Translations under genes and position numbers: made by a program | Shown here: one piece after another, positions 48,688-64,000 of the stretch | How the letters are laid out: each line of letters opens with the position of its first letter | Position numbering within the stretch: position 1 is the stretch's first letter | The notes under the pieces: model-generated | Told to the model about the DNA's origin: nothing | Databases searched by the model: none | What the model saw: only the letters and a program-made list of their open reading frames with translations | Assembly (NCBI GenBank): GCA_963783575.1 | Contig: CAWAOD010000009.1 | Location: forward strand, 320,001 to 384,000 | Direction of reading: 5' to 3' | Source: an uncultured Spirochaetota bacterium | GTDB taxonomy: Bacteria; Spirochaetota; Brevinematia; Brevinematales; JAOACQ01 | DNA: 64,000 nucleotides

Positions 48688-50378
48688 CAGACTGTGTGAA
48701 AACACAGTAAATATGCTATAATTATTAGAACAAAAATAATCGGAGTAAAAGATGAAGCATATTGAGGGAGAATCAAGGGATCAGATAGTTCTGTTCAATG
48801 AAACACTGGAAGATCTGTTAGGAGAAGAAGATCCGGTAAGGTTTATAGATATTTTTGTTGATAAGCTAAATATGAAAGGAGTTGGTTTTAAAGTAAAAGA
48901 AGCATCAACCGGCAGAAGTTCATATAAATCCGAAATACTTTTAAAAATCTATATTTACGGATATTTGAATAAAATCAGGACAAGCAGGAAATTAGAGAGA
49001 GAGTGCCGAAGAAACACAGAGTTGATGTGGCTGACTGGACGACTAGCGCCGGATTTCAAGACGATTGCCGACTTCAGGAAAGATAATAAGAAGGGAATAC
49101 AGTCGATATTCAGAGAATTTTTGAAGATATGTCATAAAGCCGGGCTTTTATCATTTGACGTTGTTGGAATTGATGGAACCAAGATCAGTGCGCAAAACCA
49201 CAATAACAATGTTTATCATAGGAAAAACATAGAAGAAATCATACATAGAATAGATCAAAAGATCGAAGAATATTTGAATGAGATGGATAAGAACGATAAG
49301 GAAGAAAAGAATGAATTTGAATTTCTTTCCGGAAAGATAGCGGAACGTTTAAAGAAAATGAAAACAAAAAAGGATAAAGTTGAGGCTATTAAAAAGATTT
49401 TTGAGGGAAATCCTGAAATGGAGAAATATTATTCAAATGACCCGGAAAGCCGGTTTATGAATGATAAAGGGAAATCCGACATTGCATATAATCTGCAGAT
49501 GGCAGTAGATGATGCGAATAAACTGATTGTGGTGATTGATGTGACGAATGAAAACAATGATATCAAACAGATGGCAGGAATGTGTGACCGAGTAGAAGAA
49601 ATAAAGGACGAGCTTAAGGTAGAGACTGAAACGGTCAAAGTATCGGATGCCGGTTATTACAGCGAACCGCAGATACTGGAATGTATAGATAAGGGACATA
49701 ACGTATATATGCCGAATCCGGATGACGGACATAAGGCAAGGATTCGAGGCAAAGAAGATAATAAAGGAGTACCTGCTGAAGAATACCAGGTTGATAAATT
49801 CAAATATGATCCGGGACAAAATGTTTATTATTGTCCGGAGGGAAACCCATTAGTGAGAAATGGGAAAAAAGTAGAGAAGGTCAATGGAGGAAAAGAGATA
49901 GTCAGGTACAAGTGCGGCTTATGCAGCCAATGTGAAGTAAGAAATAAGTGTACTGAAAGCGTGGAAGGACGAAGTATCAAAGTACCAGTTAGAAAAGAAG
50001 AAATTGAGAACTTCAAGAGGAAAATTCGTTCTGAAGCCGGGAAAAAGATCATAGAGAAAAGGAAAGAGATATGTGAACATCCATTTGGATCGATAAAAAG
50101 GAATATGGGTTACAGTTATTTTTTAATGAAGGGAAAGGATGGCGTTCTGACGGAATCCAGTTTGGCAGGATTCATTCATAATTTAATAAAAGTATTGAAT
50201 ATATTGGGAATAAAGAGACTTATGACTCTGGTTTGATGCTAATAAACCATCGTTTATCGTATTCGGATAGATTTTTTAAACTAAGATTTTTTTAGCTTGA
50301 AAAATATATCAAAAAATGGAGTCTTTGTATAATTAATCGATTTTACTATAAAATTTTACTGAGTTTTCACACAGTCTG
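48688..50378 (+). mobile_element. IS1182-family insertion sequence, copy 2 (1691 bp)
   Basis: Same IRs and identical protein as copy 1; two substitutions seen in the 3' non-coding part (40971/50277 and 41017/50323). Confidence 0.92.
48752..50236 (+). CDS. IS1182-family transposase
   Basis: Identical translation to 39446..40930. Confidence 0.93.
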   Translation: MKHIEGESRDQIVLFNETLEDLLGEEDPVRFIDIFVDKLNMKGVGFKVKEASTGRSSYKSEILLKIYIYGYLNKIRTSRKLERECRRNTELMWLTGRLAPDFKTIADFRKDNKKGIQSIFREFLKICHKAGLLSFDVVGIDGTKISAQNHNNNVYHRKNIEEIIHRIDQKIEEYLNEMDKNDKEEKNEFEFLSGKIAERLKKMKTKKDKVEAIKKIFEGNPEMEKYYSNDPESRFMNDKGKSDIAYNLQMAVDDANKLIVVIDVTNENNDIKQMAGMCDRVEEIKDELKVETETVKVSDAGYYSEPQILECIDKGHNVYMPNPDDGHKARIRGKEDNKGVPAEEYQVDKFKYDPGQNVYYCPEGNPLVRNGKKVEKVNGGKEIVRYKCGLCSQCEVRNKCTESVEGRSIKVPVRKEEIENFKRKIRSEAGKKIIEKRKEICEHPFGSIKRNMGYSYFLMKGKDGVLTESSLAGFIHNLIKVLNILGIKRLMTLV

Positions 50379-53737: not shown

Positions 53738-53860
53738 AAAATCCTCCGTCTTTATATTTTTCGATATAAATTAAAATTAAATTAATGAAACTGGAAATAT
53801 TTTTCAAAACTTACTTTTTAGCAAAGGGTGAAAACGATCCTGAGTTATTTCAGGGAAGCA

Positions 53861-54393
53861 CCGCTCGAGAGAGCGGATTGCTATCGGAAGCTCGCTGCGG
53901 CGAATCACACTCATGCCGATGCGGTAATGCCAAGGTAAGCAAACAAGAAAGCATCCCTGGCATTATGCAGTTTTGATTAGAACATGTCTGGGTAAGACAA
54001 AACTGCCCAGCTTTTGCAAAGAGACTGCAGAATTGTCTTTCTAAAGTTGGTTCTTATCAATTCTGCAAATTATCCGGTCTGCTATTCATTACACTAGCCC
54101 GGATAATACGGCCGCATCCTTGATTTTGCTGAAAAATGAATTAAAATTTGAAAACTATAACCAACCTTTTCTAATTGTATTTATAACTCATTGTTATAAA
54201 ATAGGATATGACACCAATAAAATACTGTTTATTAAACATTTTAAGATTTATGATGATTTTCAGTGAACACATCCGTGCGGCCTATCTCTATGAGTGTGTT
54301 TTGCCCCCGCTAGCCGGGATTTAAATAAACGATTCTTTATGATTATCAACAAGCTGAAATTATCTGTTCTTTCTGGTTCTTGACCGGCTGTTC
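53861..54393 (+). ncRNA. Candidate structured RNA/DNA element A (multibranch, interrupted by a MITE)
   Basis: ccgctc-GAGA-gagcgg; closing stem cacactcat (53906-14) / atgagtgtg (54290-98) encloses several hairpins; homologous to 61781-62041. Confidence 0.5.
54122..54270. mobile_element. 149-bp MITE related to the IS at 12047-13896
   Basis: Left end gattttgctgaaaaat is identical to that IS's IR; degenerate right end attttcagtgaacac; flanks atcctt/atccgt inside ggccgc...gcggcc. Confidence 0.7.
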
Positions 54394-54750
54394 AGGAAAG
54401 GATTGATGTTTAAATAAATATAAAACGATTTTTTATTGATTTAACTTATCAAATAAGTTCGCTTAATTACACCATGGAGCATAAGCGCAATTTCTGATTG
54501 AACTTATATTATACTTATAAGGAATCTTGGTACAAAATCATTGTTATTCGTAATTAACATTGTTTAAACAAGTTTGAGGATTTCAACCACGGAAGGTTGA
54601 GACCGAGGAATCAGAACAAGGACGTACTAATGACGAAGCGGTAAGTAAAAGACAGCTTTTACAAATAATCCTGAATAACAACATCTCAGTACTCAAAGAT
54701 TACTTCACATGAAAAATGGTGTTAATGCGAAGGGGCGATTTTTCTTTTCG

Positions 54751-54814
54751 ATTCCTTTTCTTTTGAACGATCAAAAGAAAAGGAATAAAGCCATATGCCG
54801 TGGTTCCGCGGCAT
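54751..54814. terminator. Two hairpins directly after the stop of the 54814..56802 gene
   Basis: Perfect 16-bp IR attccttttcttttga-acga-tcaaaagaaaaggaat, and atgccgtgg-tt-ccgcggcat. Confidence 0.6.
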
Positions 54815-61780: not shown

Positions 61781-62041
61781 ACTAGGGGGCCGCTCGAGAG
61801 GGCGGGTCATTAACGGGAAGAGCGCTGCGAAAGAAAGTAACTTTTGCAGCCCTTCGTAACTCACGTCCTGTTCGAACAGATCTACGGGCACGCGCGAGTC
61901 CTATCGCGCTCGCAAAAGTGACTTTCTTTCTCCGCTGTGCTTTCCCGTGAATCTAGTAAAGAAAGAACAGCCGGGAAATTAGTTTATGATTAATAATAAT
62001 CTGAAATTGACAGTTCTTTTTGGTTATTAGCCGGCTGTTCT
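61781..62041 (+). ncRNA. Candidate structured RNA/DNA element B
   Basis: ccgctc-GAGA-gggcgg; long stem 61813-61847 / 61912-61948 with two internal hairpins; 11-bp IR agaacagccgg/ccggctgttct (61964-62041). Confidence 0.5.
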
Positions 62042-62102
62042 GAATATTTACAAAAGTCCCCTGTTTGTGGAAGAGAGGTTATATCTGTTTACAAAATGAT
62101 TC

Positions 62103-62132
62103 TTGACAATCAATAAATTAAAATGCTATAAT
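62103..62132 (+). promoter_or_regulatory. Consensus sigma70 promoter facing the cassette (Pc-like)
   Basis: TTGACA-18 nt-TATAAT with extended -10 TG (tgctataat). Confidence 0.75.
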
Positions 62133-62234
62133 AAAAATATTTATGTCCGTTGACCGGCAGAATATTTTTTTATAATATTACTAAGTTTTTTAATAAGTTC
62201 GTATTTTACAAGTATTTTGAAGTAATATATGAAG

Positions 62235-62292
62235 TGCGCATATCACTCCGAAATTAGAGTAATATACGCAATGCGTATATATCGAGTTGTAC
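62235..62292 (+). other. attI-like recombination site
   Basis: Three TGCGYATAT boxes (62235 +, 62262 -, 62272 +), then 5 nt and GTTGTAC (62286). Spacing matches the attC right end gtgtacgc-ctgcc-GTT. Confidence 0.6.
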
Positions 62293-62331
62293 GAAAGAAA
62301 TGCCCAGTAAGTTTATTTTTTGGAGAGTGTT

Positions 62332-63735
62332 ATGAATAAAATAATTATTTTATTATTAGTAATATTGTTTAATATCTTTTTATCTAACAATTTATATTGT
62401 AATTGGTCTCCAGTTGATGGTTCGTCATTAAAACAACCAAGAACAATGCAGCTAATTAATAATAAGTCTATATTTATTGAAAATGAAACAATTTCAATAA
62501 AAATTGAAAAAGAAAGTGCTTTTGTTAGTGTATTATATAAATTAAAAAATACAATAAATAAACAGGATGTTAATGTCAGTTTCCCAGTTGAATATTTATT
62601 AGAACCATATTTTGATGAGTTTAATAATAGTAATAAGGTTGACTATTTCAACGCTTATGAAAAAAGTGCTGATAACTATCAAAAAATAGTTTGCAATGAA
62701 TTATCAATAACAAATAATTTTAATAAAGATAGAGATGAATATAATATAACTCGATGGTATAATGCAAAGCTCAATTTTGTAAAAAATGAACTTAAAGAAA
62801 TTAAAGTTGAATACAAGATGAGTCTCGGTTTTGGAGATGGTATATCAACAATAGATTATTTTGTTAGATATTCACCAAGGACTTTTAAATATTTATTAAC
62901 ACCTGCAAAAAATTGGGGAAATGGGTTAGCCAAACATATAGAAATTAATATGGATTTAAATGATTTAAAAACCAATAATTTAATACTAAATAATATAAAA
63001 TTTCCTGGAAGTAAAAATAAATTTGGAATTTTCCAGGGATTAATAAACATTATTTCCCCAAATAAAACATTAATTAACAATAAATATTATTATAGTTTTA
63101 AATCAGATAATTTCAATTTTAACAATGCAGAAAATATTGAATTGGAATTTGATGTGGGTTCAATTTATAATTCTCAAATAGCATTAAGTAATAGAATTTC
63201 TAATAATCAAATTATTTCAATGAAGTCTTCTTCTACTCTTATAGATAAAAAGTATAGTTATTCAGTTTCTAATTTAATTGATAATAATTTTTCTACTGCT
63301 TGGGTTGAAGGTTCTTCTGGCCAAGGAATCGGCGATTGGGTTGAGTTCACATTTGATAATCCGAAAATAGGTTATATTGGAATTATCAATGGCCTTTTTA
63401 TAAATGAAAAGCTATATTATGCCAACAGTAGAATAAAAAAATTAAATTATTATGTAGAATATAATACAAATTATAATGATCCAAATAACATAACTTTTCA
63501 ACAGCAATATTTAACATATCATACTAATAATTATGAATCTTATGACATTAACTTTGAAGATAAACCTTATTTTAATATTTCTAAGTCAAATTTTTATAGA
63601 GTATTAGAAAGAGTATATGAAAACCCAGATTCTCCATTTCCAATTAAAAAATTTAGATTAACAATAAAAGATGTTTATCCTGGAAAAAGTTATAAAGATA
63701 CCTGTATTTCAGAAATATATTTTTTAAGCAATTAA
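62332..63735 (+). CDS. Cassette-borne exported protein: DUF4424-like N-terminus plus NADase-type glycan-binding (discoidin-like) domain
   Basis: Signal peptide; TAWVEGSSGQGIGDWVEF, NSRIKKL, VYPGKSYKDTCISEI; visibly more AT-rich than neighbours; RBS ggag before ATG 62332. Confidence 0.75.
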   Translation: MNKIIILLLVILFNIFLSNNLYCNWSPVDGSSLKQPRTMQLINNKSIFIENETISIKIEKESAFVSVLYKLKNTINKQDVNVSFPVEYLLEPYFDEFNNSNKVDYFNAYEKSADNYQKIVCNELSITNNFNKDRDEYNITRWYNAKLNFVKNELKEIKVEYKMSLGFGDGISTIDYFVRYSPRTFKYLLTPAKNWGNGLAKHIEINMDLNDLKTNNLILNNIKFPGSKNKFGIFQGLINIISPNKTLINNKYYYSFKSDNFNFNNAENIELEFDVGSIYNSQIALSNRISNNQIISMKSSSTLIDKKYSYSVSNLIDNNFSTAWVEGSSGQGIGDWVEFTFDNPKIGYIGIINGLFINEKLYYANSRIKKLNYYVEYNTNYNDPNNITFQQQYLTYHTNNYESYDINFEDKPYFNISKSNFYRVLERVYENPDSPFPIKKFRLTIKDVYPGKSYKDTCISEIYFLSN

Positions 63736-63759
63736 GTAAAACAACTGGGCGTTTCCTTC

Positions 63760-63983
63760 GTACAACATGGCGTACACGTTCCGCTCCGTCCTCACTAGCG
63801 TTCCGGGCGGTGCTCAGGCTTCGCCACATTTCGCTTTGGCACGGATTTTTGCCTGAAATTTATTAAAGAGGGAATATGATGTTTAATAATGACTGTATTT
63901 ATAGAAAAACTTTACGGCAAAGTGGCAAAAACACGTGCCAACCCTGACGGGCCGCGAAACGTCGTGTACGCCTGCCGTTATAT
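63760..63983 (+). other. attC-like site (~224 bp)
   Basis: R'' gtacaac (63760-66), ggcgtacac (63769-77) / gtgtacgcc (63964-72), R' gttatat (63977-83); nested stems ttggcacg/cgtgccaa and tttttgcc/ggcaaaaa. Confidence 0.75.
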
Positions 63984-64000
63984 GCAATGCCTTAAATTTT

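Follow-up and report, generated by a model that had tools for sequence, protein, structure and literature searches.

Results

The window analysed here is a 64 000-nucleotide stretch of the genome (G000) of an uncultured spirochaete, and the element under study, A (53861–54393), reads on its minus strand. At its outer end lies a degenerate 3' tail of two hairpins (53814–53858), of a kind present on copies of both the A/B family and a sister family, T, and then the GC-rich terminal hairpin of the A/B family (53861–53876, helix 8), with loop GAGA on the plus and TCTC on the minus strand. There follow, by alignment to sibling A copies (53877–53924), the 3' strand of the outer helix and basal stem (53906–53914) and the remnant of a second hairpin domain (53915–53924); a 184-nt insert that occupies the place of the siblings' 35-nt GGA-loop hairpin segment (53925–54108); and the left stem arm of hairpin 1, GGCCGC, with a first target copy, ATCCTT (54110–54121). 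A 149-bp MITE without assigned strand (54122–54270), with the terminal repeats of an 1850-bp IS encoding a 538-aa IS1182-like transposase, separates these from the second target copy, ATCCGT (on the minus strand ACGGAT, an AYGGAY loop), and the right stem arm (54271–54282). The element closes with the 5' strand of the basal stem (54290–54307) and a 5' module (54312–54393), a GC-closed hairpin with an AT-rich loop that is missing about 31 nt at its junction relative to the siblings. Beyond an AT-rich spacer of 61 bp (54400–54460) stands a partner on the plus strand, arm T (54461–54812), with a basal stem, GGA-loop hairpins at 54586–54597 and 54616–54625, a long tail hairpin and a terminal hairpin that abuts a stop codon at 54814.

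A second, intact copy, arm B (61790–62040, minus strand), carries two GGA-loop hairpins. Abutting its inner end and pointing away from it, on the plus strand, is a module (62096–62288) made of a near-consensus promoter-like site (62103–62132) and an attI-like site, conserved up to a GTT (62286–62288) and variable beyond. The first cargo of arm B follows on the same strand (62320–63985): a low-GC, cassette-like gene of 471 aa and an attC-like repeat. This gene (62320–63735; GC 0.23) opens with a signal-peptide-like stretch and carries an NADase-translocation (F5/8 type C) domain at the C-terminal end.

The seven helices named for A in the original prediction, which was made from the sequence alone, are exact reverse complements wherever they were spelled out: CCGCTC at 53861 with GAGCGG at 53871, CACACTCAT at 53906 with ATGAGTGTG at 54290, TAATGCCA at 53925 with TGGCATTA at 53958, CTGGG at 53988 with CCCAG at 54006, GCAGAATTG at 54027 with CAATTCTGC at 54058, ATTATCCGG at 54069 with CCGGATAAT at 54099, and GGCCGC at 54110 with GCGGCC at 54277. 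The 57-nt block reported as common to A and B, which belongs to the 5' module, was recomputed at the same 46/57 identity. Folding of the plus strand goes beyond chance for both A (z −6.2) and B (z −5.6), as does that of the minus strand of A (z −5.0). With the MITE removed, z for A lies between −5.9 and −6.8 on either strand, near −5.9 when folded as RNA and from −6.5 to −6.8 when folded as DNA.

Much of what makes A look unusual was acquired. The MITE splits its GGA loop and left a 6-bp duplication (ATCCTT/ATCCGT); it had been placed at 54122–54276 and is indeed there, but the MITE proper ends at 54270 and positions 54271–54276 are the second target copy. The 'RTCCNN loop' described for A likewise exists as sequence, but there it is the target site of the MITE. 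Ends in common with an autonomous IS, no coding capacity and a target duplication identify 54122–54270 as an IS1182-derived MITE. The 1850-bp IS itself splits the A-type copies on contigs C13 and C16 in the same hairpin loop, and once it was removed by script their minus strands present a basal stem that bears two hairpins, each with ACGGAT or AAGGAT as its loop. The window copy retains the first hairpin; the second was lost with the 35-nt segment. The 184-nt replacement matches the expanded 5' module of another A/B copy (C5:171349–171512; E = 4e-13, insert positions 2–165; 77% over 90 nt by BLAST). Since the interior of A consists of a MITE and a piece of a sister element, its multibranch form is unique to the window copy. 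The 'expandable interior' that had been proposed is, in A, damage; the apparent novelty of the fold is explained by these two insertions, and A is a broken copy.

How A came to be split can be read from the insertion preferences of this IS and its MITE. Among 24 listed IS/MITE insertions in G000 (the window MITE included, and two of them nested repeats of one site), 19 have a target 6-mer whose core is GGA on one of the strands, as is the case for 6.6% of random 6-mers; nine lie within a stem of at least four pairs, and 12 fall within or at a recognised repeat, often in the loops of the repeats described here. The 149-bp insert (and it only) resembles the IS1182 family in its terminal repeats, 6-bp duplication and associated DDE transposase, whereas the transposase of the 1850-bp IS scores 216 with its best model, NF033551, under the cut-off of 270, and the targets here have a GGA core. 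The window also holds an intact 494-aa IS1182-family transposase gene (48752–50236) of an IS distinct from the MITE's parent, copies of which recur inside arms and pairs.

BLAST and profile searches retrieved many copies of the A/B family in the genome. Where two copies, A and B, had been envisaged, there are dozens: profile matches at E<1e-8, merged on one strand within 2.5 kb and with weaker matches dropped, give 55 arms of the A/B and T families. At least seven full copies belong to a B-type subtype of about 260 bp, and four to the A type (the window, C11:81810, C13:247981 and C16:108290). Their minus-strand order is a 5' hairpin module, a basal stem with two GGA-loop hairpins, a terminal hairpin and a tail. 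The predicted conserved frame with covarying stems was borne out: across nine B-type cores 88.9% of cells pair and 12 of the 52 pairs have changed on both sides, and none of 500 shuffles reached either value, a significance that is overstated because the structure was derived manually from folds of individual sequences among the same related copies. Slid controls paired at 37–45%, a comparison biased in favour of the structure for the same reason, and RNAalifold, run on an alignment that included partial rows, gave a wrong local fold. Eight of the nine cores have GGA in both loops, several of which read AGGAC and so are not strict AYGGAY. Element A can be regarded, with little doubt, as a real but degenerate and composite member of a spirochaete repeat family whose layout is related to that of TwoAYGGAY (RF01731).

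The BLAST comparison originally suggested succeeded within the genome, but B had no match in 40 relatives, and models were needed to find the family elsewhere. The B-core model finds the A-type copy on C11 at 61 bits, and homologues with different stem sequence in one of 150 other genomes of the phylum, in genome G001 and in spirochaete MAGs; the MAG homologues have the 5' module, core and terminal hairpin. A genome scan returned five loci, three real (from two spirochaete MAGs) and two by chance. Three motif scans of viral contigs found none, and a metagenome scan gave 19 loci with no full T arm, six of them having short, weak matches around the motif itself. G000 also contains a third module, about 115 bp long, with a single GGA-loop hairpin and some 90 profile matches (for example C16:220025–220140), which has fixed junctions with A/B and T arms and occurs inside attC-rich regions as well. 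Contigs C7 and C17 of the same assembly have a GC content of 0.52 and 0.49 against about 0.37 elsewhere, and may be foreign elements or contamination.

The original prediction missed both the partner element, which stands 61 bp right of A, and the arrangement of pairs around cargo. A and T form a divergent doublet, divergent meaning that the GGA strands point outward, and this orientation prevails: the 24 neighbour pairs whose members are no more than 12 kb apart comprise 19 divergent, two convergent and three tandem ones (strand permutation, p=1e-5). The 1.5-kb flanks differ in mean GC, with 0.332 for the 5' and 0.380 for the 3' flank, and the 5' value is the lower one in 43 of 54 arms (p=3e-6). 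The arms are polar, the tail facing host genes and the 5' end facing low-GC DNA. Pairing is weaker in the relatives: with the T model alone, G001 has three divergent, no convergent and two tandem pairs among 30 arms, and genome G011 two, none and two among 29, many arms being solo. Near the far ends of the solo islands of G011 there are many unrelated repeats, with no clear partner from a second arm family among the matches listed. A doublet in genome G005 (C85; L043:1200–2600) was not counted: it is a perfect inverted duplication that includes a flanking gene and an A/B-like element, and is likely an assembly artefact. Regulation in cis of the adjacent aldolase gene was rejected as a role for the window pair, as no A/T pair lies beside the aldolase matches of G001 or G011; the nearest feature in G001 is a weak tail match about 1.3 kb away.

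Most divergent pairs enclose low-GC DNA that is rich in defence genes, in a descriptive sense of the term. Of 117 enclosed or adjacent ORFs, 74 were compared with Pfam, and 38 selected proteins with PADLOC, where 17 matched at 1e-10. The cargo includes Dsr1, a UG5 reverse transcriptase, type I, II and IIG restriction–modification (RM) systems, HerA, PDC-M11, PDC-S14, GmrSD/NsnA, HEPN, ParE-Phd and many IS. In G011 a type I RM operon lies within one pair and a CRISPR-Cas locus within another; the latter (L174:1900–11620) is complete, with Cas3, a CT1975-type subunit, Cas1 and a repeat array between two divergent arms. The UG5 reverse transcriptase and nitrilase-like parts inside the pair at L071:2256–5347 are two adjacent ORFs, and are fused in the PADLOC model. 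Some doublets are empty or nearly so: 61 bp in the window, 577 bp on C13 and about 280–370 bp on L060, where the short divergent T/AB doublet resembles that of the window.

The promoter/attI-like module beside B has counterparts. Fifteen matches yield 14 such modules, nine of which lie within 141 bp of the inner end of an arm; these nine point into the cargo, four reaching the GTT in one match and the rest being partial. The attI-like end of B's module recurs beside an integrase gene at C5:458191, a gene that is in pieces and scores 88 bits against the integron cut-off of 265. At this locus (C5:457130–458255) the fragmented gene is co-oriented with its cassettes, and the site beside it is matched by orphan modules, including that at 62096–62288 in the window. 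Most cargo genes have no attC-like site. The pair of A has neither module nor cargo; B has one module and a cassette, and downstream, at a distance of about 10 kb, there is only a short 5' fragment of T.

These observations also bear on whether the arms are selfish solo repeats that land at the borders of DNA already foreign, with pairing and cargo as by-products of tolerated insertion and of terminator-like tails kept beside host gene ends. Other repeats, IS and MITEs are dense in the same intergenic regions, solo arms are numerous in G001 and G011, and the orientation of adjacent genes is mixed on both sides. Flanking direct repeats of 5–6 bp were absent from the outer ends of all four pairs that could be assessed for target duplication, the window pair among them, in three of which the true left end may lie further out; the other 15 of the 19 pairs were not assessable. 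Against such passive landing, the bias is one of strand polarity and goes beyond position (19 divergent versus two convergent), the empty or near-empty doublets have no island to border, and the docking modules are fused to inner ends in fixed orientation. We regard this explanation as rather unlikely.

The distribution of arms is patchy, which speaks for their mobility. The T model is positive in three of 43 genomes of the class. Of 15 arm-flanking genes in G001, 11 have a match in G000, some of them weak and possibly not orthologous, and an arm lies within 2.5 kb of only one of these 11 matches. In G011, with about 30 arms, the arm that was compared with four congeners matched none of them. 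T tails end sharply at the terminal hairpin. Among the loci compared we saw no pair duplicated together with its cargo and no clean empty site.

The search for a mobilising enzyme for the arms found none. It had been suggested that copies might neighbour a nuclease, and this holds in G000, where both Y1 genes lie inside divergent pairs, the one on C3 being the sole ORF of 80 aa or more between its arms, but there is no consistent linkage across genomes. The arms could on this basis be giant REP/REPIN-like substrates of the genome's RAYT-like Y1 HUH nucleases; a Y1 domain just inside one arm of G011 is in keeping with this, as are the Pseudomonas REP arrays beside TwoAYGGAY copies described in section 8 of a recent preprint (bioRxiv 10.64898/2026.09.22.753630). 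The Y1 genes of G000 nonetheless have short palindromes of their own and both are broken, G005 has five Y1 matches of which the two loci tested are armless, and G001, an assembly 57% complete, has about 30 arms and no Y1 match; mobile genes of every kind, moreover, gather in the pairs. A role for RAYT as the mobiliser is thus not supported, and we consider it very unlikely. Two near-identical RAYT-like Y1 genes with their own REP-like hairpins (L065:1959–2490 and L069:9427–11265) have each been damaged, one being frameshifted around an internal palindrome and the other interrupted by an IS. Searches of 12 family genomes for Y2/IS91 transposases gave no match, nor did the controls give a signal.

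An RNA function would place the family in a different light. The arms could be small RNAs, present in many copies, whose two GGA loops act as a sponge for CsrA, the pairs stemming from an insertion-tolerant, divergent promoter region common to two genes. G000 encodes CsrA, GGA is kept in the loops while the stems covary, and the tails of T may form a pseudoknot (AAAGCC with GGCTTT, by eye), none being evident in A/B. CsrA of the spirochaete Leptospira is reported to bind GGA hexaloops (PMC8668096), and a sponge function had been proposed for TwoAYGGAY (PMC4333381). Yet promoters in the A–T region are at chance level (six found versus 5.1 expected), T copies have unrelated 5' flanks, the two strands of A fold equally well and the count of wobble pairs gives the GGA strand no advantage (6 versus 11). 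Patchy presence within one genus and the many copies broken by IS in the loops themselves also argue against it. Compared with CsrA-binding sRNAs of the CsrB/Rsm type, as these are presented in the two papers just cited, the arms are alike in having GGA in hairpin loops and a host with CsrA, but carry just two sites per unit in dozens of dispersed, often broken copies. In our assessment a CsrA sponge is unlikely as the primary role.

The window has no Rfam match at the gathering cut-off. The original remark that A was not recognised as any known RNA class holds to the extent that the Rfam threshold is failed, but the minus strand does resemble TwoAYGGAY. RF01731 has three matches in the genome, all in the T family, at 37.2, 35.3 and 27.5 bits, and no copy of either family reaches its cut-off of 43 bits. 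Eight A/B loci have no match to RF01731 at E≤10, other Rfam matches being chance. The layout of A/B corresponds to the TwoAYGGAY anatomy as section 8 of the preprint defines it (bioRxiv 10.64898/2026.09.22.753630): sibling A and B copies have two sequential hairpins on one basal stem, reduced in the window copy to the first, MITE-split hairpin, and A-type copies have loops of AYGGAY type (ACGGAT/AAGGAT). The traits of the extended form, multiple copies and divergent doublets, are present as well (19 of 24 pairs within 12 kb and 4 of 4 within 2 kb), and T and A/B have tail and 5' modules in common, in chimeric copies. A is like TwoAYGGAY in layout and fails the membership score.

Discussion

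We have described a spirochaete repeat family whose arms stand in divergent pairs around foreign, defence-rich DNA. We read element A as the left arm, now damaged, of a back-to-back pair that encloses no cargo, and such pairs as non-autonomous DNA bookends at which foreign, defence-rich DNA docks; we give this a probability of about 0.5. Against it stand the search for a mobilising enzyme, which found none, the absence of target duplications in the assessable pairs, the weaker pairing in relatives, the fragmented state of the candidate integrase and the scarcity of attC-like sites among the cargo genes. The arms would spread as folded DNA, with the help of an enzyme supplied in trans. Two routes would bring cargo to their inner face: an integron-type integrase would use the orphan attI-like sites, and homologous arms would recombine with one another. 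The latter would also explain the swapping of modules, for example the 184-nt insert of A. The absence of a docking module is the likely reason why the pair of A is empty, although this argument draws on a single case. If transcripts left an island, they would contain the GGA loops and could be bound by CsrA, as a secondary effect.

Paired non-coding elements around passenger genes have precedents. TIME-COMP or integron mobilization units, as described in PMC13367494, are miniature elements in direct or inverted orientation that bracket 1–10 kb of passenger genes, but they derive from Tn3 and have terminal inverted repeats and 5–6-bp flanking duplications. The arms described here can belong to different families, have hairpin ends and show no duplication in the four assessable pairs. 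REPINs and REPtrons with their RAYTs (PMC6006769) also form inverted doublets of hairpin repeats and, like them, the pairs here may hold Y1 genes between their arms. Unlike the short REP hairpins of that account, however, the arms are multibranch structures of 250–350 bp, and the Y1 genes come with palindromes of their own and are not consistently linked to arms from one genome to the next.

To our knowledge, no function has been assigned to TwoAYGGAY since 2010. Its likeness to our families, as far as the available descriptions go (Weinberg 2010, PMC2864571; bioRxiv 10.64898/2026.09.22.753630), lies in two GGA-loop hairpins, a basal stem and a long extension, together with multiple copies, a patchy distribution, divergent doublets and a sister family, T, that scores up to 37.2 bits; A/B differ in having no RF01731 match at E≤10, and the host here is a spirochaete. 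Doublet gaps range from 61 bp to 11 kb and hold defence genes and attI-like docks, whereas the median gap given in the preprint is 249 bp. The words 'cargo' and 'integron' are absent from its main text, and the preprint leaves undecided whether TwoAYGGAY is a CsrA sponge or a mobile element. Our literature search retrieved no description of TwoAYGGAY pairs around defence cargo in the sources covered, figures S22–S29 of the preprint, which may bear on the point, lying outside its scope.

A wider proposal, which we put forward as possible but doubtful, is that elements of the TwoAYGGAY type form the polar ends of mobile units that build defence islands and belong to a class not yet recognised. 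Their arms would insert back to back, carry or recruit promoter–attI docks at their inner ends, and take up or swap anti-phage systems as large as entire RM and CRISPR-Cas loci, and A with its neighbour would be the minimal, empty form. The GGA loops would then be the recognition signal of a putative single-strand enzyme, instead of or besides being CsrA sites.

In summary, the arms of a spirochaete relative of TwoAYGGAY pair with strand polarity around defence genes and have integron-like docks attached to them, and there is also an empty pair. The pairing, the docks and the empty pair turn the question of whether TwoAYGGAY is a sponge or a mobile element into concrete tests, and the finding bears on how defence islands nucleate.
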